Source of the DNA: a virus
DNA length: 64,000 bases
IMG/VR virus record: IMGVR_UViG_3300007514_000005
Coordinates: 8,009 to 72,008 of that record
Strand: one strand, 5' to 3'
Numbering within the stretch: position 1 is the stretch's first letter; the number at the start of each line of letters is the position of its first letter. Below the pieces are notes generated by a model. The model saw only the letters and a list, made by a program, of their open reading frames with translations. It ran no database searches and had not been told where the DNA came from. Position numbers and translations under genes: made by a program. Shown here piece after piece: positions 34,743 to 64,000 of this stretch.

Positions 34743-35031
34743 AAATTTTGCTTGTTGTTCCCATAAATGACGGACGCTTCTCTTGCCTTCTTACCACCAC
34801 GCTTTTCTTTGCGCTACCTAGATAATGGCTCAGTTTATCGGGCATTGGGCAATGCCTTGACTGTAATAGTGGTCTGTGTGGGTATTTGAGTAGCCTAGTC
34901 TCGTCTATAATTTCCTTAGCGCTCATCCACCTCTCGTCATTATCAATTAGGTGCTTCCTAACGGCGGGCCACCAAGAAGTGCTCCCGCGCATTTTACCTA
35001 TGCGTCTTGACCTTCTACCCATCAATACCAC
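34699..35031 (-). CDS. Basic winged-helix-like protein
   Basis: Basic sequence with WMSAKEII...YVYR pattern. Confidence 0.5.
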   Translation of the reverse strand: MVLMGRRSRRIGKMRGSTSWWPAVRKHLIDNDERWMSAKEIIDETRLLKYPHRPLLQSRHCPMPDKLSHYLGSAKKSVVVRRQEKRPSFMGTTSKIYVYRWCGDYDSDEE

Positions 35032-35317
35032 CTTTCTGACCTCTCGCTCTAGTAGGAATCTCGTGCTTAACTAGCCATTGGTTAATAGCGGCAGGGGTCA
35101 CACCAAATTCGGTTGCTATGTCTTGCATAGTCCTACCCTTACCCAAGTATTCATCCTCTAACCACAGGGGGTCTCGGTAATGCTTAGGCTTGGTCTTATC
35201 TACAAGCGTTAAATTAACGCTGTATTGTGCGTTGGTGGCTGTTGCGCCACCTTCTACACCATGCTCTATCATCATTCTCAATGTTGTAATTACATCTGCT
35301 ATCAAATCTTCATTCAC
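35015..35317 (-). CDS. HTH DNA-binding protein
   Basis: YRD-x-x-WL...Y...TMQDIATEFGVTPAAINQWL-x-KH-x-I. Confidence 0.8.
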   Translation of the reverse strand: MNEDLIADVITTLRMMIEHGVEGGATATNAQYSVNLTLVDKTKPKHYRDPLWLEDEYLGKGRTMQDIATEFGVTPAAINQWLVKHEIPTRARGQKGGIDG

Positions 35318-55936: not shown

Positions 55937-56073
55937 ATTTGTAGCAAAGGCGATTTGTAGCAAGAGGATTTGTAGCGAACAGAAAAAAATTGTAGCGAAG
56001 AGATTTGTAGCCATGAAAATTTGTAGTGAAGAAATTTGTAGCCTTGAAAATTGTAGCCAACAAAATTTGTAGC
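55937..56073. repeat. Nine tandem direct half-sites A(T/A)TTGTAG(C/T) at 15-16-bp period
   Basis: Copies at 55937, 55953, 55968, 55988, 56003, 56019, 56034, 56049, 56065. Confidence 0.95.
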
Positions 56074-56164
56074 CACCGGACGCGGGCGCGCGGGCGCGCT
56101 TCGCTACAAATTGGTGCTTGAGAGGGCGAATCGGAAGGTTTATTAACTACCCCTATGTCTCACA

Positions 56165-56575
56165 ATTTGCCGCTCCTGTGGAGTGGTGTGCGTGACGGCG
56201 CGCGGGTATTGGTTGCTCGGAGACGGGTAGCCGTGTTGAGTCGGAGTCTAACGGGGAGACTCGGTAGTAGGGGAGTCGGGAGACGACCCGCGCTTAGGCA
56301 ATCTAACCGAGAAGAAAGTAAGACAACGCACTTCCGAACGGGAGCGGTGATTTGAGTAGGACTTGAAAGGATTACACTCGGCTGAAAAAGGGAATAGAGC
56401 CTACTCAATGATTGAGGGCAGGTCTGCTTCGGCGGACTTCGGTAGCACCGCACGCAGGGAAGGACTGCGCCCACCTTACGAGGACGCCTACGAGCCTTCA
56501 CCACTATATGATGCGTGATGCGCCGAGACACGGAAGTTAGAGGCTCGCGCCTTCGTCCGAGAACCAATATCCAAA
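56165..56575 (+). ncRNA. Candidate large structured ncRNA 1 (~410 nt)
   Basis: Promoter ATCGGAAGGTTTATT at ~56130; helices 56170-79/56338-47, 56204-21/56556-72, 56352-60/56400-08; UUCG hairpin 56421-36; no credible ORF. Confidence 0.7.
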
Positions 56576-56591: not shown

Positions 56592-57020
56592 TCAAGCGCA
56601 CTTCGCGCAGACTACTCTCATTGGGTTGCTCGTAATATCCGCTTGCTTTACTTTTCTAGCGGTTGTCGCGGGTGCATTTTCGTTGCACCCAACACATACG
56701 CCTGTGCTACCGCGTAGCATCATCATAACAGGCGCGGCCTGAATGAATCCGGTCAAGTCAATTACTTTCACGGGTGTAGGAATGTTCTCTTTTCGGAGCA
56801 AGCGCCGCATCTTGTTGAGTCGGTGGTTCTCGCAGGTCGTTTTATGGCTTCGGCCTTTTATCGCTCCACAGCATTCGTGCCTCTCTCGTCCTTCCGAGAA
56901 TCGCCCGTTGCTTTTTCCGGTGCGTGCCTTGCTCTCGCCTGTGGCCTTGCCGCCCTTGCGACCTGCCGCTTGCTTTTGCTTGTCTGTGGCCTTGAATGTG
57001 CCGTCCTCATACCTGCGCAT
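56592..57020 (-). CDS. Basic protein with KGG motif and Cys/His clusters
   Basis: Start placed at 57020, just after the cassette-type promoter GACCGACAGGTTCATAAG (57060-57043); AAGRKGGKATG, CCG...H...C, CVGC...CAKC. Confidence 0.7.
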   Translation of the reverse strand: MRRYEDGTFKATDKQKQAAGRKGGKATGESKARTGKSNGRFSEGRERHECCGAIKGRSHKTTCENHRLNKMRRLLRKENIPTPVKVIDLTGFIQAAPVMMMLRGSTGVCVGCNENAPATTARKVKQADITSNPMRVVCAKCA

Positions 57021-57098
57021 AATAGGGTCACGCGGGCATTTGCTTATGAACCTGTCGGTCATCGAAAGGTTTAAGTGCAAACGCCTCTCCCCTCAATT

Positions 57099-57475: not shown

Positions 57476-57916
57476 ACTAATAAAGGTAAAAGAACCGCGC
57501 AGAAATTGTAGCAAGGACAAAAAGTGCGTGGGGATTTGTAGCCATGAGAATGTAGGCCCGCCAATTTGTAGCGAGCGGCGGGAGACAGGGGGTTAATAAA
57601 CCTTTTCTTTTAGGGGTAATTTGTAGCACACTCGGTGTGCCGCAAAACACCTACCCTGCATATCACACTAAGTGCATTTTCTACACCTACTTTCAAATTT
57701 GTAGCAAGTTTTTTTCACGCACCGGATAAAATTTGTAGCAAAGACTTTTTTGCGCGCGCAAAAATTTGTAGCAAAGGGCGAAAAACCGCCAAAACACTAC
57801 AAATTTGTAGCAAAGAGGCCTTTTTCTCATATATAAACAAAATTGGCTACAAATTTGTAGCAAAGGGGGGAATAAGCCACCGACAGGTTCATATAGGCAC
57901 ACCCTGTCCGCTAAAC

Positions 57917-58195
57917 ATGGACTACCACAAGATAGAGCCGGAACAAAGCGAGCAAATGAAGAAATTGCAAGCGATAGAGGATGCGGGAGAGTGTGCGAGC
58001 CTGACTTGCATAGAACACTTCTGTATGGTATGCGCGCGTAAAGGAATTGTAGGGCGTATAGTAAAGGGATGGAGAATTTGCGAAGCAAGCAAACTCTACA
58101 AGGCGCAATTACACATTGTTGCCGACTGTGAAAACTGCGGTGAGATTATGCACTTCAATTGGATAGACCGAGACAAGATTGAGGGGGGGTATTAA
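57917..58195 (+). CDS. Cassette ORF, Zn-binding (92 aa)
   Basis: Start after promoter CGACAGGTTCATATA; CMVC...CENC; the ORF-track upstream extension runs through repeats. Confidence 0.7.
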   Translation: MDYHKIEPEQSEQMKKLQAIEDAGECASLTCIEHFCMVCARKGIVGRIVKGWRICEASKLYKAQLHIVADCENCGEIMHFNWIDRDKIEGGY

Positions 58196-58200
58196 ATACT

Positions 58201-58320
58201 ATGACTGAGTGCGAAGAGTGTGGAAAAAAGGCGACCGTGAAAACATGGAGCATGGGAGACGAGATTTACATTGAGGTTTGTTGCGTGTATTGCAACCTGA
58301 CCGCCGCCTACGGTCTTTAG
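58201..58320 (+). CDS. Cassette ORF, Zn ribbon (39 aa)
   Basis: MTECEECGKKATVKTWSMGDEIYIEVCCVYCNLTAAYGL*, followed by a T-run. Confidence 0.65.
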   Translation: MTECEECGKKATVKTWSMGDEIYIEVCCVYCNLTAAYGL

Positions 58321-58451
58321 TTTTTTAGGGCGCAAAGAAATTTGTAGCAAACGCTTTTTCAACAGGGGGGATAACACACGCTACAAATTTGTAGCAAAGG
58401 GAAGAATGGAAGAGCGACAGGTTCATAAGGGCAAGCCTCTTCGGTCTAATC

Positions 58452-58631
58452 ATGCTAACAAGGAAGCATTACCAAAAGATTGCCGCCGCTATTGCGGCAG
58501 TTGATGACCCACAAGAGAAAGCCACAGCATATATGACGGTGATAGATATGTGCCGAGAGTCGAACCCAAGATTTGACGAGGACAAGTTTTGGGATGCGTG
58601 CGACTTCCCTGACGGGTTCAGGATTGAGTGA
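58452..58631 (+). CDS. Cassette ORF, small phage protein of the M-x-TRK-x-Y...NPRFD-x-x-x-F-x-x-AC type (59 aa)
   Basis: Hand translation; promoter CGACAGGTTCATAAGGG at ~58414. Confidence 0.75.
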   Translation: MLTRKHYQKIAAAIAAVDDPQEKATAYMTVIDMCRESNPRFDEDKFWDACDFPDGFRIE

Positions 58632-58632
58632 G

Positions 58633-58764
58633 ATGAGAGCGCCAACCTACGAAGAGTTTAAGGCCCACATTTGGCCCGCTTGGAGTGAGAAGGGGCAGAC
58701 CGAGCACGAGTGCGAAGAGGCCTACCTGTGGTTCATTCGCGGGCGCAGGTCTGTGAGGTGGTAA
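58633..58764 (+). CDS. Cassette ORF (43 aa)
   Basis: MRAPTYEEFKAHIW...; followed by a hairpin plus T-tract. Confidence 0.6.
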   Translation: MRAPTYEEFKAHIWPAWSEKGQTEHECEEAYLWFIRGRRSVRW

Positions 58765-58919
58765 GCGGGGGCGTTGCCCCCCTTCCCCTTTTTTCTATAC
58801 TCCTGAAAAATTTGTAGCAAAGAGGGCGTGAGGCGGTTGTGCCGTAGGCTACAAATTTGTAGCGAAGAGAAGAATGCTTGACCGACAGGTTGATAAGGGG
58901 AGAGCGAGTGGAGTAAAAT

Positions 58920-59153
58920 ATGGCGACAGTCATTGAGGACGAACAACCGGAAGGAATTATAGAAGCGAAGATGGGCAAGCAGGATAGCCTGTGGGTAGAT
59001 ACCCCACGCGGTCTCCTGCACATATTCGTGCGTGGAGACGGCACATGGAAGATGACCGCATGGAACAGCGGCGGTAAGAATGCACCCAAGATTACTAAGA
59101 GGAAGAAGAAGGGGCGCACCTACTACCACCTAAGCCAAGTCTTGAACGAGTGA
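58920..59153 (+). CDS. Cassette ORF (77 aa)
   Basis: Promoter GACCGACAGGTTGATAAG at 58880; downstream GGGGC-GAAA-GCCCC terminator-like hairpin. Confidence 0.75.
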   Translation: MATVIEDEQPEGIIEAKMGKQDSLWVDTPRGLLHIFVRGDGTWKMTAWNSGGKNAPKITKRKKKGRTYYHLSQVLNE

Positions 59154-59340
59154 TTACGCAACAAAGAGAAGGGGGGCGAAAGCCCCTCTTTTCTATACCC
59201 GTGAAAAATTTGTAGCGAAGAGCGTAAAGCAAAAACACCGACTGCTACAAATTTGTAGCATAGAGAGCGTAAAACGAGGGCGCGGTTGGCTACAAATTTC
59301 ATACCGACACCCTTAAGTAGTCACCCCCCCTGCGACAAAC

Positions 59341-59682
59341 ATGGAGTTAGCAATACAATACGACATAGAAGCGACAGCAATGAACCGCGTTGAAGAGGGA
59401 GCAATGGAGAGCGAAGCAGATTTCTTCACGGGGGCAATGGCTATGTATTTGGCTCTCAAGCCGAAGAGTGAGGAAGATGGGTCGTGGTGTCCGCCTTCTT
59501 GGATATTCACTCTCATGGCGGGAGATAGTATAGTCGAGAAAGTAAGGGAAGAAGACGAGGCCGCAATGGAAGCAGACAGGCAGATGGAGAGGGCCGAGAT
59601 TGCGGCTGAGAACGCTTACGATGCACAGCGCGAGATTAGCGCTGAGATGTGCTATGACGACAGGTATGACGATTACTACTGA
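59341..59682 (+). CDS. Cassette ORF, acidic (113 aa)
   Basis: Promoter-like CCGACACCCTTAAG at ~59304; downstream hairpin GGGCGGGA/TCCCGCCC. Confidence 0.75.
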   Translation: MELAIQYDIEATAMNRVEEGAMESEADFFTGAMAMYLALKPKSEEDGSWCPPSWIFTLMAGDSIVEKVREEDEAAMEADRQMERAEIAAENAYDAQREISAEMCYDDRYDDYY

Positions 59683-59872
59683 TTGAGCGGGCGGGAAGGC
59701 ATCATCCCGCCCCTCTTTCTATCGCTGGGATAAATTTGTAGCAAAGGGGGAATGAAACGCGCGGACATGAGGCTACAAATTTGTAGCGTGCTGAGCGTGT
59801 GTGAGAAGAATGGTCGGTTGGCTACAAATATCCTATCGGTGGGTTTAATAGGGGAAGCGTCTAGGGCGGTAT

Positions 59873-60205
59873 ATGTCTAACAGACGGGGAAACCGGAAGC
59901 ACAACCGCGACAGGTTTGAGGGCGCACGCCTAAGCGACTCGGAGCGAGTCGAGTGCGCTAATCTCATGGATAGCATACGAGCGCGCAAGCCTCAGCAATT
60001 CCGTGCAGGGCGAGACCTATTGGTTGTGTTGAAGGATACAGGAAAAGTAAGAGAAGTGGAAGGAAGCAGGGGCGATATGATTTGCTGTATAGTGCGCGGC
60101 GGTGTCGAGCACACTTGGATGATGCGAATGAAGTCTCAAGTCATGGGCAAGAGTGCGAAGGGATGCAAGCAAAAATTGCGAGTGGATAAAATTCTTTGGG
60201 CGTGA
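59873..60205 (+). CDS. Cassette ORF, basic (110 aa)
   Basis: Promoter TCGGTGGGTTTAATA at ~59836. Confidence 0.75.
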   Translation: MSNRRGNRKHNRDRFEGARLSDSERVECANLMDSIRARKPQQFRAGRDLLVVLKDTGKVREVEGSRGDMICCIVRGGVEHTWMMRMKSQVMGKSAKGCKQKLRVDKILWA

Positions 60206-60394
60206 AACAAATACCCCTCTTGATTTGTAGCGAAGATTTCTTTAGCGCCTACAAAAATTTGTAGCGAACACACATGGGGAAGGTGAATGCGCACGGGCTA
60301 CAAATTTGTAGCCAACACACCGCAGAAATACAGCGCGGCTTTGCTACAAATTCGCAATCGAAAGGTTTAATACCCCACCCCCCTTCCCCTAAAT

Positions 60395-60830
60395 TGTAGG
60401 TCGTTGCCGACCTATGTTCCCCTACGGGGGGGCGGGTGCTCATTGGAGTCAGGTGGCGTTGAAACGCATCATAAGCCCGTGCAATGCTCGCAGAAGATTC
60501 GCGGGGTTGGAAACACGGGGGGATGGTCTGCCTTACGACTCTTGTTGAACGGGGTTCTCTTCTAGCGAAGTCGCGCTTGCGCGGCCTCTCCTACGGAGAT
60601 TAAATACGCGGCGGTGTCGCCCCAATTATTCGGGAGTCGAGGGCAGGTATCGAGGGTGTGTAGTGTTAGGAAGAAAGGAGTTCGCAGGTGAAACACCATA
60701 AGTCTGAATATGTAATTCGCGCGCGTGGCTTGGCTTCAATAGTATGGAAAGCGGGGGTCGCGCGCCCCTGTCCTCTCGCAAAGAGGCCACCGCTCGGCAG
60801 GGCGGCCCAACATAGTCGGCACGGCTTACA
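60395..60830 (+). ncRNA. Candidate large structured ncRNA 3 (~436 nt)
   Basis: Promoter ATCGAAAGGTTTAATA at 60357; 5' TGTAGGTCGTTGCCGACCTATGTT pairs with 3' AACATAGTCGGCACGGCTTACA; two C-TACG-G hairpins and a CTTG-loop hairpin. Confidence 0.75.
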
Positions 60831-61181
60831 CCTTTAGTTTTATCGCTATAAAATTTGTAGCGAATTAAGTTCGTTGTTTTTCTCGCGCGCTGAAAGAATA
60901 AAACGCATGACTGCTCCAAATTTGTAGCAATTCTTTATTTCCTTCTATTATGTTTTAGAGTAATGCCCTTTCTATAACTACTATTGAAAGAATAGAATAA
61001 ATACAAATTTGTAGCGCAGTAGCCCGAATAATTCTTTTTCCTCTTTTCAGAATTATTGAAAGAATTACTACAAATTTGTAGCCAACCGTCTGTTGTGGGC
61101 CTTCGCGCGCGTCACCCGTGACGCCCTTTGCTACAAATTTCACATCGGCAGGTTCATAAGGGGAGACCCACTCGGTTGAAC

Positions 61182-61382
61182 ATGGACAAAAAGCAGAAGC
61201 GCTACATTGAGCGCATTGTTATGGCGGGCCTAAGAATGATTGGCGAGAACGATGAGGGAGAGCCGTTGGAGACCTTCGGCGACCTCTTCAAAGAGCATGA
61301 CGCGGTGATGGCTCTTCTCGGTCTTGACGAAGAGTCAAACCTTGTTTTCGGTGAGGAAGCAATACTGAAAGACCCGCAATGA
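61182..61382 (+). CDS. Cassette ORF (66 aa)
   Basis: MDKKQKRY..., after promoter ATCGGCAGGTTCATAAGGGG (61144). Confidence 0.75.
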   Translation: MDKKQKRYIERIVMAGLRMIGENDEGEPLETFGDLFKEHDAVMALLGLDEESNLVFGEEAILKDPQ

Positions 61383-61662
61383 GGGGGGGCGCGCACCCGC
61401 TTATAATGTTTTCTTTACCCCGTAAAAATTTGTAGCAAAGAGCACTTCTTTCTTTGTGCGCACCGCACACGCGGGCCGTTGCCTACAAATTTGTAGCGAA
61501 GAGCGCTTAACCCCTACGCCCTTGCGCCTTACTGTATCAGACTACAAATTTGTAGTGAATGGTGCGTCTGTTGCGCCCCCGCGCGTGCGTCACGGGTGAC
61601 TTCGCTACAAATAAAACCTTATAAGGGGATACCCACTCGGATAGAATAAGGAGCGAAAAAAT

Positions 61663-61812
61663 ATGTATGTATATGGCTTAGGAGACGAACAAGAACGACA
61701 TAATATGTGGGATGACGAGGATTTGTGGAAGGAATGCCCCGATTGCGGCGCATTTAACTTCGTGGAATACTGCGGCGGGGCTGACTGCCTGACCTGTGGT
61801 AAGCAGTATTGA
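61663..61812 (+). CDS. Cassette ORF, Zn ribbon (49 aa)
   Basis: ...KECPDCG...DCLTCGKQY*; AAGGAG RBS; downstream GGGG-GCAA-CCCC hairpin. Confidence 0.7.
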   Translation: MYVYGLGDEQERHNMWDDEDLWKECPDCGAFNFVEYCGGADCLTCGKQY

Positions 61813-61887
61813 GACGGATGGGGGGCAACCCCCTTCCCTCTTTCTTCACATCGGTAGGTTTATAGGCAGACGCCTACTCGGTTAGAA

Positions 61888-61973
61888 TGGTGGTAGCCAC
61901 TCCGCCTGTTAGCGCAGGTAGCAAGGTGAGTGCGGTTCGCGCGGACTGCGGGTGCAAATCCCGATACCGCCAC
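61888..61973 (+). ncRNA. tRNA-like RNA (acceptor stem + T-arm, non-canonical middle)
   Basis: GGTGGTA (61889-95) pairs with TACCGCC (61965-71) plus discriminator A; CGGG-TGCAAAT-CCCG T-arm; own promoter CATCGGTAGGTTTATAGG; T-tract after. Confidence 0.6.
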
Positions 61974-62153
61974 ACTTTTCTTTACCCCTAAGAAATTTGT
62001 AGCGAAGCGACCGTCTGTTGTGCGCGCGCAAAAGCGTCACCCGTGACGGCTACAAATTTGTAGCCAACCCCACCACAGCCCGCCGCCCGCGCGGTAAAAC
62101 CCCCCGCTTGGCTACAAATAAAAGATTATAAGGGGAGACCTGCTCGGTTGAGC

Positions 62154-62267
62154 ATGGACGAACCACGCCCATGCGTAAGAGACATGATGAATGCGACAGG
62201 AATGAGTAGAGAGGAAGCAGAAAGGGAGTATGAGGCAATGCTTTACGCAAAATACTGCCCGCGTTGA
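62154..62267 (+). CDS. Cassette ORF (37 aa)
   Basis: MDEPRPCVRDMMNATGMSREEAEREYEAMLYAKYCPR*; promoter GATTATAAGGGG...CTCGGTTGAGC-ATG. Confidence 0.65.
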   Translation: MDEPRPCVRDMMNATGMSREEAEREYEAMLYAKYCPR

Positions 62268-62542
62268 GCGGACTTGTCTTGCGCTTATAGTCTTTTTCAT
62301 ACCCCATAGAAATTTGTAGCCAAGCGAACCACCTTCTCGCGCGCGGCACGCCCGCACCGATATAACCTACAAATTTGTAGCGTATCGAGAAGCAAACAAG
62401 CGCGCGTATTCTTCTTACGGTGTATTGACTACAAATTTGTAGTCTGCCGTGTTTGCGTGCGCGCGTCACGCGCGTTTAAGGTTTGCTTCGCTACAAATAT
62501 CTATGTCGGCAGGTTTATAACCCCTAACCCCCTCGTCTAATC

Positions 62543-62656
62543 ATGGAAGAGAAGTGGGAAGTCGAGGAAATGTATTACGACAAGCAATACGAGCAATGGC
62601 GCGTTGTTCTACGCAACACAGACACAGACGAGACCCGATGGGGCTATGTCGAGTGA
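62543..62656 (+). CDS. Cassette ORF (37 aa)
   Basis: MEEKWEVEEMYYDKQYEQWRVVLRNTDTDETRWGYVE*; promoter TCGGCAGGTTTATAA. Confidence 0.65.
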   Translation: MEEKWEVEEMYYDKQYEQWRVVLRNTDTDETRWGYVE

Positions 62657-63309
62657 GCGGAGCGCGTTTGCGCTTATAATCTTTTCTTTAGCGCTGATAA
62701 ATTTGTAGCCAAGCGTCTTTCTTTCTTTTTCCCGCGCGCGTCCAGACCACACACCCTACAAATTTGTAGCCTGTCGAGCGTTAAGACAACGCGCGCTTTT
62801 TGTGTAAAGGTTAATAGACTACAAATTTGTAGCGAAGTTAGGTTAAACAAAGGCGCGCGCCCTTAACCCTTATACTCTTTGCTACAAATTTTACTGCGCG
62901 TGGGTCTCCCCTTCCTTCCTATTTATCCGTGTAGGTGTAAGGATATAAACCTTACGGTTAAAGAAATTTGTAGCCAAGAGGGGTTAAACAAAACGCGCGC
63001 GTGCGGGGTAAGGGGGGTTGGGCTACAAATTTGTAGCGTATCGAACCCCCTTCAGAAAAAAGAGTGTAAAGGGAACGCGCCCTTAGTAGGCTACGAATTT
63101 GTAGCGTAGGGGGCTACCCCCTTACGCGCGTAAAACAAAAACAAAGGGGGCTACAAATTTGTAGCCAAGATACCTACAACAAAACAACCGCGCGAAACAC
63201 AAACGCGCTACGCTACAAATTTGTCGCTTGTTGTAGTAGAAAAAATAAATCGCTTCGCTACAAATACGCAACCGATAGGACTATAAGGGCGGGCCTACTC
63301 GCTCTAATC

Positions 63310-63504
63310 ATGCTATACCTAAGCATGGAAGAAGCCGAAGAAATGTATGACGACATGATAGACGAATGCTACGGTGAGGTGAATGTTGGAGTGACCTTCA
63401 ACGCCTCGCGCGTATTGAGGGAGTTAGACCCGATTGCCTACCGATGCGGGTTCAACGACTACATGGACAGCCTGTTTGAAGACGGCTACACCCTAACCGA
63501 CTGA
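63310..63504 (+). CDS. Cassette ORF, acidic phage-type protein (64 aa)
   Basis: YDDMIDECYG...S-x-VL-x-x-x-DPIAYRCG-x-x-DY-x-D; promoter CCGATAGGACTATAAGGG. Confidence 0.75.
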   Translation: MLYLSMEEAEEMYDDMIDECYGEVNVGVTFNASRVLRELDPIAYRCGFNDYMDSLFEDGYTLTD

Positions 63505-64000
63505 TTACGACACGCGCCCGTGTGCGCTTGGACTTTTAAGGATTTCCACATAAGGCGCTTTTTAGAGCGAGCGCGGGAGATTTGTAGCAAGACGCTTTTT
63601 AGGCCTCGCGGGAATTTGTAGCAAAGGCGGTTTTTAAGCCCCCCGAAAATTTGTAGCCAACAGAAAATTTGGTGCTTCGCTACAAATTTGTAGCGAAGAT
63701 ATTGAAAAATCGTAAGTCCTGAATTGAACCTAGAATTGGCTACAAATTTGTAGCAAACCACGATTGCCGAAATTCAAAATCTTGGCTACAAATAGTCAAG
63801 GATTACCGGATTCCGGAAATCTGATGCACAGGCTCGCAGTATAGCGATTCTGAGCAATTCTGAAAATCCGAATCGAAAAACCCCTAAATTTCGCAAATTT
63901 AGCAGGGTCGCCGCCCGCAAAAGTGCGCCAAAAGTGAATTATTCTTGGTAGAAACTCGGAAAAATTGAGACCATTACCGGAATTCGGACAGGCTCGCAGT

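Follow-up and report, generated by a model that had tools for sequence, protein, structure and literature searches.

The last 8 kb of a 72,008-bp viral record in IMG/VR (IMGVR_UViG_3300007514_000005) carry, in the spaces between small genes, arrays of a short word whose orientation, spacing and position upstream of TATA-like boxes follow a common grammar. We analysed a 64,000-nucleotide window of this record (bases 8009–72008) and conclude that the arrays are a real, conserved and unusually regular cis-element system among viral intergenic regulatory repeats, whose mechanism we infer. An earlier note on this DNA had described A/T-centred sites about 61–63 bp apart with a GC-alternating tract at the midpoint, and had proposed that length and symmetry are under selection. 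The reading that we favour, and to which we would give about an even chance of being right, is that a sequence-specific protein docks on the arrays at the DNA level and thereby controls early promoters.

The repeated element is an asymmetric 11-nucleotide half-site, TTTGTAGC-N-W-A, denoted R (its complement is denoted L). It is nearly confined to the last 8 kb of the record, where 51 of the 55 copies of TTTGTAG and 32 of the 43 copies of CTACAAA are found. Within units half-sites face each other, and two abutting units form the palindrome GCTACAAATTTGTAGC; all 21 AAA|TTT centres measured by hand in the earlier note had been located correctly, each as an x.5 position between AAA and TTT. The window contains 28 matches to the 14-mer CTACAAATTTGTAG at up to two mismatches, where 0.28 would be expected (at most 2 in any of 100 shuffles), and 26 of these matches lie at 57691–63753. 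Similarly, a 16-mer with at most one mismatch is found at 20 places in the 72,008-bp record, all of them at 57.8–63.8 kb of the window, against none for the reversed control pattern. GC-alternating hexamers are concentrated as well, with 22 of the 27 copies of GCGCGC and 29 of the 37 copies of CGCGCG in the last 8 kb.

The grammar was derived from a pooled sample comprising the window, 36 metagenome contigs that match the composite pattern and two viral contigs, which after removal of duplicates holds 129 complete non-redundant arrays from 39 sources. Most arrays (89/129) run from a lone R to a lone L, 35 have one palindromic end and none has two. At 202 of the 218 array ends typed as half-sites, only 0–2 of the 5 letters of GCTAC are present where the outer half is missing, an agreement at chance level. 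Neighbours in which an L is followed by a non-abutting R are rare (8/345 neighbour pairs). Because of these array ends, the chance-level outer halves and the rarity of non-abutting L-then-R neighbours, we conclude that the basic element is a unit bounded by two inward-facing half-sites, and that the palindrome is the seam between units.

Unit lengths are bimodal: among 196 non-redundant units, 77 measure 45–48 bp (mode 46) and 50 measure 57–63 bp (mode 61–62), with minor groups at 35–36 bp and 66–67 bp. Direct repeats of the half-site cluster at 15–16 and 30–36 bp. The spacing classes of 15–16, 30–35 and 43–50 bp proposed earlier are present in the parts of the window to which they had been assigned, and their description as multiples of about 15 reflects a real periodicity, as a Rayleigh scan of 340 gaps (12–100 bp) peaks at 14.8 bp with R 0.43, compared to 0.23 as the largest value among 500 random sets with uniformly distributed gaps. 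Restricted to the window, the scan peaks at 15.3 bp (R 0.57).

The two length classes differ on their dyad. A central CGCG is present in 36 of 51 long units, and in 23 of 35 if the window is left out (rotation control mean 15.5, maximum 26 in 2000 rotations); in the short class, which is without a central repeat, it occurs in only 4 of 88 units, below the control mean of 7.2. The midpoint tract of the earlier note is thus a property of the long class and does not extend to the short one. Between 60845 and 63800, CGCG lies within 8 bp of the midpoint in 13 of 17 convergent units of 55–70 bp. This enrichment withstands both controls, namely shuffling of the interior mononucleotides (mean 1.2, largest 6 in 5000) and rotation, by which the tract is kept but moved (mean 5.2, largest 12 in 5000). 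The five tracts listed in the earlier note are correct in every letter and are centred within 0–1 bp of their unit midpoints:

62021–62030: TGCGCGCGCA, 0.5 bp from the midpoint
62401–62406: CGCGCG, 1 bp from the midpoint
62853–62860: GCGCGCGC, 0.5 bp from the midpoint
62994–63001: CGCGCGCG, 0.5 bp from the midpoint
63124–63131: ACGCGCGT, exactly on the midpoint

Unit interiors are GC-rich (54–62%, compared to 45% for the genome) and otherwise nearly free of positional information. The folded unit profile has weak A/T peaks near positions 10–11 and 19–21, and the variable segments within units are about 16–20 nt long. At offset 16–18 a half-site-like signal is seen (2.4 vs 1.9–2.0 matches of 8), which is weak, confounded by composition and was not used. 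A 13-mer match elsewhere in the genome was found for 3 of 31 interiors, and these correspond to paralogous units or isolated 13-mers.

Comparison with the related contig L036 indicates which parts of this layout are kept. Identity amounts to 95% in half-site cores (152/160), 83% at unit midpoints (50/60), 77% in unit interiors (228/297) and 73% in other intergenic DNA (86/118), next to 90% (176/195) for the open reading frame (ORF) at 63310–63504, the protein of which is 94% identical. Successive gaps are 61-63-63-78-63-68-60-62-45 bp in the window and 62-65-63-79-62-68-60-61-45 bp in L036. Gap placement in this alignment hints at compensating indels within units, which may be an aligner artefact and was not used. 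By the earlier note, unconstrained spacer lengths in homologous loci would have refuted its proposal; spacings are constrained alike in the 36 metagenome and two viral contigs. Altogether, selection on length and symmetry is borne out by the conserved bimodal lengths, the diverging interiors, the inward-facing bounds, the CG dyad and the ladder of about 15 bp, and binding or wrapping by a symmetric particle is then a reasonable assumption.

Relatives also carry homologous small ORFs in differing order (57.9–63.5 kb of the window compared with L031, L008, L036, L039, L040 and L057), each still preceded by an array, for example R-46-RL-46-L or R-62-RL-62-L, and one ORF family comes with arrays of the long class or of the short class, depending on the contig. 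A DNA relative from run X3 is without exactly one 59-bp unit and without a 316-bp gene-plus-array segment that ends at two palindromes. This suggests cassette shuffling at the repeats among relatives. Other searches for relatives had these outcomes: megablast of 55–64 kb against 50,697 phage records gave no match, a search for related loci with the 262-aa ORF after the last array found nothing, DNA containing at least half of the sampled words of the region came from only two marine metagenome runs of one study, perhaps the sample from which the record derives, and alignments of DUF932 and of the family-B DNA polymerase (PolB) reach only the same clade (74–99% identity) before they drop to 24–27%.

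The window contains 13 multi-site arrays of 2–10 sites each. Arrays and clusters are listed here without strand, together with the TATA-like boxes beside them:

55938–56110: iteron-like cluster of nine direct TTTGTAGC-type half-sites in steps of 15–20 bp, mostly 15–16 bp (nine copies at 55938–56073)
56139–56146, plus strand: TATA-like box TTTATTAA downstream of the iteron-like cluster; an RNA-library contig starts 23 nt on, at 56169
57535–57861: six direct half-sites (gaps 30–78 bp) and two full palindromes, upstream of ORF 57917–58195
58341–58395: short-class array R-47-RL; TATA-like TTCATAAG at 58422–58429, ATG 22 nt after
58811–58863: short-class array R-45-RL; TATA-like TTGATAAG at 58890–58897, ATG 22 nt after
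59209–59296: short-class array R-43-RL-45-L, upstream of ORF 59341–59682
59735–59828: short-class array R-45-RL-49-L, upstream of ORF 59873–60205
60224–60350: array with gaps 32-2-47-46, upstream of TATA-like TTTAATAC at 60366–60373 and then a non-coding stretch seen in RNA libraries
60854–61137: A/T-rich array with gaps 67-87-67-63, upstream of ORF 61182–61382; TATA-like TTCATAAG at 61153–61160
61429–61611: long-class array R-61-RL-59-RL-63-L; TATA-like CTTATAAG at 61618–61625
61996–62118: long-class array R-61-RL-62-L; TATA-like ATTATAAG at 62125–62132, ATG 21 nt after
62313–62497: long-class array R-61-RL-62-RL-62-L; TATA-like TTTATAAC at 62514–62521, ATG 21 nt after
62702–62888: long-class array R-61-RL-63-RL-63-L, with no ORF of at least 30 aa directly after
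62967–63264: long-class array with gaps 63-68-60-62-45; TATA-like ACTATAAG at 63280–63287, ATG of ORF 63310–63504 22 nt after
63581–63792: three direct half-sites (gaps 34, 35, 37), two palindromes and a closing half-site (gaps 60, 46), near the record end

Ten of these 13 arrays have, 6–34 nt downstream, an 8-mer that differs from TTTATAAG at three positions at most; the last inward-facing half-site is 6–16 nt upstream of this TATA-like box, or 34 nt in three arrays. The ATG of an ORF of at least 30 aa comes 20–22 nt after the 8-mer in eight of these ten, and a ninth promoter was recognised by eye (TTCATATA at 57888–57895, ATG at 57917). An archaeal TATA box ends about 22–23 nt before the start site, which is the textbook TATA-to-start distance for leaderless mRNAs; with boxes 20–22 nt before the ATG, the genes would thus have leaderless mRNAs. 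GGAG-type words are present at two genes whose leaders are longer. On their upstream side, many arrays start right after a T-run such as TTTTCTTTA, itself past the previous stop codon, and such a T-run is a form of archaeal terminator. The palindrome as a TATA box in its own right was rejected by reasoning, since AAATTT is without a TpA step, unlike the gene promoters here.

RNA-library contigs (runs X11, X13 and X15) cover 56169–56520, 59358–59658, 59879–60029 and 60414–60820, which represent two ORFs and two non-coding stretches. None of the arrays is covered by these contigs, a lack of cover that proves nothing, contig ends and coverage gaps being weak evidence for transcript starts or absence. 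The stretch at 60392–60835, past the TATA-like box at 60366–60373, is non-coding and GC-rich. It is covered at 60414–60820 by contigs from three runs, has the highest RNA-library depth of the region (113), folds better than its shuffles (z -3.2) and has no Rfam match; it may represent an abundant viral non-coding RNA. A second non-coding stretch, past the iteron-like cluster at 56169–56520 and perhaps extending to about 57480, folds like its shuffles (z -0.5). Over 55–64 kb, Rfam at E up to 1 returned only one chance-level miRNA match, spanning two palindromes.

Further elements were seen beside the arrays. A tRNA-like element at 61888–61972 has a TATA-like box to itself (about 61858) and comprises a stem of 8 bp resembling an acceptor, a hairpin resembling a T-arm (loop UGCAAAU) and two more hairpins. 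It was called neither by ARAGORN, which found no tRNA, nor by Rfam, and these 100 bp are missing from a DNA relative; by likeness to the tRNA-like attP of the halovirus HF2, the element could be an attachment site. The A/T-rich array contains, at 60854–61074 (gaps 67/87/67 bp), three TTGAAAGAAT-type words and inverted copies, and is about 77% identical in two relatives, above its surroundings; it may be an origin or the site of another protein. A second palindrome, GTCACCCGTGAC or GTCACGGGTGAC, recurs in the promoter-proximal unit of several arrays (61108–61121, 61586–61599 and 62034–62047) and at L006 47–58 and 472–483, a relative whose PolB is 75% identical, and probably marks the site of another factor. 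Close to the record end, a direct repeat with CAGGCTCGCAGTA at 63810–63845 and 63975–64000 continues into L017 1–125 and adjoins the 119-bp terminal overlap; it could belong to the packaging or end region.

With this layout in mind, we propose that a protein would read the asymmetric word TTTGTAGC-N-W-A, and that its working element would be the symmetric unit, not the palindrome, consisting of two facing words across a GC-rich spacer of fixed length. Units would come in two sizes, about 46 bp, or about 61–62 bp with a palindromic CGCGCG on the dyad, and laying them edge to edge would create the palindromes. Between the T-run at the end of a small gene and the TATA-like box of the gene that follows, one to five units would fill the distance. 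The protein would assemble symmetrically between the two anchor words, again in two sizes. Since the last inward-facing word lies just ahead of the box, occupied units would adjoin the TBP/TFB site, and a set of near-identical early promoters could be switched on or off together. The nine direct copies of the word may in addition mark a replication origin, in which case the protein would join origin binding with promoter control; this cluster coincides with a switch of gene strand, from which the strands diverge, and with the minimum of the cumulative GC skew, and is closed by one inverted half-site 45 bp further on. Grammar, conservation and promoter geometry are observed directly; protein binding, oligomerisation, the direction of regulation and the origin role we infer.

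Several points weigh against this proposal. A symmetric particle in two sizes that are 1.5 helical turns apart is awkward to build. The pooled units stem from related viruses and are not independent, hence the pooled statistics overstate the support. The relative in run X3 has 9–10-bp deletions inside three units, so that unit length is strongly, yet not absolutely, constrained. Pfam scans of 40 ORFs and PHROGs scans of 20 gave no DNA-binding family beyond one weak, sub-threshold helix-turn-helix match (35015–35317, minus strand). Finally, two conserved small proteins modelled with AlphaFold came out at low pLDDT (64.6 and 57.6), and a Foldseek search of the PDB with the first of them had a best E of 2.7 and no hit at E <=0.001. 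We have also considered a more specific version, in which a protomer of about 15 bp would polymerise between inward-facing anchors into closed particles of three or four protomers (46 and 62 bp, the four-protomer form on a CG dyad), giving a virus-specific 'mini-chromatin' that tiles the early intergenic spaces and gates archaeal promoters. It could be built by an unrecognised viral protein or by the Poseidoniales four-histone-fold chain, whose folds would span about 60 bp; we regard it as rather unlikely.

Could the arrays be ordinary palindromic operators, with a dimeric repressor or activator on each full palindrome and with terminal half-sites and fixed spacings merely incidental? The 16-bp palindrome does have classic operator geometry, an A/T centre flanked by GTAG and CTAC at 11 bp from each other; its conservation against L036 is 95%, and the arrays abut promoters. 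However, not one of the 129 arrays is palindromic at both ends, 89 end in inward half-sites with outer halves at chance, the half-site alone runs as direct repeats, and the spacing is sharply bimodal with a dyad element in the long class, so we consider such operators unlikely. A chromatin-positioning code has been suggested as well, in which the A/T palindromes would be linkers and the GC-rich 46- or 62-bp interiors would be wrapped by host histones or a non-specific chromatin protein. It would suit the composition of the interiors, their A/T peaks near positions 10–11 and 19–21, the ladder of about 15 bp and the long unit of about 62 bp. Archaeal histones protect DNA in steps of about 30 bp (60, 90 and so on) per dimer. 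As the wrapping particle named in the earlier note they do not agree with the commonest class (77 of 196 units at 45–48 bp, centred on 46 bp), and positioning by composition and dinucleotide phasing of about 10 bp is at odds with boundaries made of a strict 8–11-nt word, confined to 8 kb of a virus, next to which the A/T peaks are only weak. The probable host order does have a single-chain protein with four histone folds; in the part of that report available, this acidic chain is the only histone-like gene described for Poseidoniales and its describers doubt that it binds DNA (PMC13260811), and the host assignment is itself no firmer than probable. We hold a chromatin code to be the least probable of the explanations weighed here.

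The arrays might instead act as RNA or single-stranded DNA, either as hairpin units resembling REP/BIME elements or as guide-RNA arrays of TIGR or CRISPR type. Indeed, conserved edge and centre elements alternate with variable segments between them, edge repeats are truncated at array ends as in the available description of TIGR (PMC12045711), and in minimum-energy folds the 8-nt arms are paired in most units (80 of 88 short, 47 of 51 long). Yet complementarity does not continue past these arms (0.39 at positions 9–16 vs 0.40 for random pairing) and interiors have no advantage in folding over their shuffled versions (mean z -0.27 and -0.16), which speaks against the hairpins with a GC apex that had been put forward. 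Moreover, no Nop-domain gene was found in the whole record (nothing for PF01798 at E up to 1, with control matches in 5 of 14 genomes), the repeat is without box C/D words or an Rfam family, the spacers measure about 16–20 nt where TIGR has 9–12 nt, there are 13 short arrays in place of one long array, with a T-run on one side and the TATA-like box that follows on the other, and the interiors match nothing else in the genome beyond the 13-mers mentioned above; we find a role as RNA or single-stranded DNA highly unlikely. If the main function of the repeats were to move small gene cassettes, as recombination sites or linkers, with regulation secondary, this would accommodate the varying ORF order with arrays kept, the ORF family found with either array class, and the missing 59-bp unit and 316-bp palindrome-bounded segment. 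Homologous recombination between any repeats would have the same outcome, however, and the inward-facing grammar, the two lengths, the CG dyad and the fixed distance to the TATA-like box would be left unexplained; with no recombinase gene recognised among the ORFs scanned, we judge this quite unlikely. Elements of replication or partition, either iterons or a centromere recognised by an initiator or segregation protein of the virus and without a role in transcription, would explain the nine direct half-sites, mostly 15–16 bp apart, at the strand switch and GC-skew minimum, but most multi-site arrays are tied one-to-one to promoters over 8 kb, and no Rep, initiator, origin-binding or partition gene was recognised in the Pfam and PHROGs scans described above, in which many ORFs have no family. 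Such elements seem to us about as improbable as a role in RNA form.

In our preferred reading, docking sites for a protein at early promoters, the binder is most likely encoded by the virus. The composite pattern has no match in 185,579 reference genomes, and the bare 16-mer gives single matches only, in 116 stretches, near the roughly 140 estimated by chance. The word is thus not an obvious host motif, which makes a virus-encoded binder more likely. A candidate by its position alone is a conserved basic, Cys-rich ORF, present at 16 loci and lying between the two largest half-site clusters:

56592–57062, minus strand: 156-aa ORF, candidate binder

Its family had no match in a PDB profile search, none in the ESM Atlas at >=0.9 and no family match. 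As a separate observation, the 16-mer palindrome occurs on at least nine contigs of one Turicibacter metagenome-assembled genome (L098, L108, L112, L113, L127, L129, L136, L145 and L151), probably through a repeat family of its own that is unrelated.

The virus itself, uncultured and marine, is probably archaeal and magrovirus-like, judged from its gene content. It encodes tail proteins, a tape-measure protein and a PolB whose closest named relatives are haloarchaeal tailed viruses (about 24% identity), as well as an ERCC4+HhH nuclease and an RFC-like ATPase, with a Cpn60 chaperonin gene within the replication block; 119 bp are repeated at the two ends of the record. This agrees, as far as the available text of the report goes, with what is described for magroviruses of Marine Group II archaea (PMC5434244), and the probable host order is Poseidoniales. 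In the literature searched, the motif strings retrieved only three unrelated papers and no description of the lattice was found; in two papers on magroviruses and Poseidoniales viruses, the words 'palindrom', 'promoter' and 'intergenic' are absent from the main text, the supplements, which could hold motif data, lying outside this scope. Viruses of Marine Group II-type archaea are abundant and, like their hosts, uncultured. The grammar, made up of a single word, two fixed lengths of unit and the CG dyad, is concrete and testable by synthesis, and at least 36 marine metagenome contigs contain it. It can serve as a bait for the binder in vitro, as a marker of promoters and early regions in related genomes from metagenomes, and as a means of studying, with an archaeal transcription system, how spacing is read by an oligomeric regulator. 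In addition, the lattice appears to mark the joints at which relatives exchange small early-gene cassettes.

Among known systems, several share single features with these arrays. In the conserved inverted repeats of phiC31, the stoperators of mycobacteriophage L5 and the C1 operators of P1, one short intergenic word reportedly makes up a phage-wide regulon, and like them the present system places one short word at many intergenic sites. In these dispersed phage repressor systems, which have bacterial hosts, asymmetric monomer sites can occur singly or in direct or inverted pairs; they are not known to have fixed 46- or 62-bp units, a dyad element or edge-to-edge packing. Plasmid Rep initiators (RepA, RepE, pi) bind direct iterons at origins and inverted copies as operators, and, as with EBNA1 and SV40 T antigen, the same word is found direct in one cluster and inverted at promoters, by which control of transcription is coupled to binding at the origin. 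The iteron-type layout is present here, with nine direct copies at 55938–56073 (a putative origin) and inverted copies at promoters; the difference lies in the dozens of inverted copies 46 or 62 bp apart and in the absence of a recognised Rep-like gene. Lrp/AsnC (feast/famine) regulators wrap phased A/T-centred sites about three turns apart and bind cooperatively to several sites upstream of a TATA box, their dimers requiring full palindromes. Our arrays resemble this in their A/T-centred palindrome, in the alternation of AAATTT and CGCGCG centres about 31 bp apart in long units and in the several sites upstream of a TATA-like box, but half-sites here stand alone, the central element is CG and not a second A/T site, and the Pfam scans found no Lrp-family gene in the virus.

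PeSL cassettes of T4-type phages and REP/BIME elements of enterobacteria act via their own promoters or RNA hairpins. The former are likewise repeated regulatory modules that flank small early genes and undergo cassette shuffling, and the latter are extragenic repeats of alternating orientation with linkers of set lengths; in our case, however, the interiors are unstructured and the promoter is separate. CRISPR arrays have direct repeats of at least 23 nt, separated by unique spacers, in one long transcribed array, unlike the 8–11-nt word in alternating orientation and the 13 multi-site arrays of 2–10 sites, most of them upstream of a promoter of their own, that are described here. Integron attC sites are imperfect palindromes over their whole length and fold as a single strand, which is not the case here, as is evident from the complementarity and folding values given above. 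TIGR arrays, known from phages and archaeal viruses, share two alternating repeats, two variable segments and truncated edges; as the available part of their description has it, they have 9–12-nt spacers, 8–12-nt edge and loop repeats, box C/D words, an adjacent Nop-domain gene and 5–15 units per transcribed array (PMC12045711), and neither this spacer size nor the box C/D words, the Nop gene or a single transcribed array of that kind is seen here.

The nearest archaeal case is that of the HF2-type intergenic repeats. As far as the accessible text of the report goes, the halovirus HF2 and its relatives carry intergenic repeats of 58 bp (class I) and 29 bp (class II). These belong to an archaeal tailed virus, are conserved only in early and middle intergenic spaces with their position kept among relatives, are tied to TATA promoters and have been proposed to bind virus-encoded factors (PMC8707807), all of which resembles the system described here. 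HF2 repeats are single conserved blocks that contain the promoter, whereas our TATA-like boxes lie 6–34 nt outside the last half-site. What sets the present arrays apart is the 11-nt word, its inward-facing pairs, the variable interiors, the two fixed lengths and the tandem packing.

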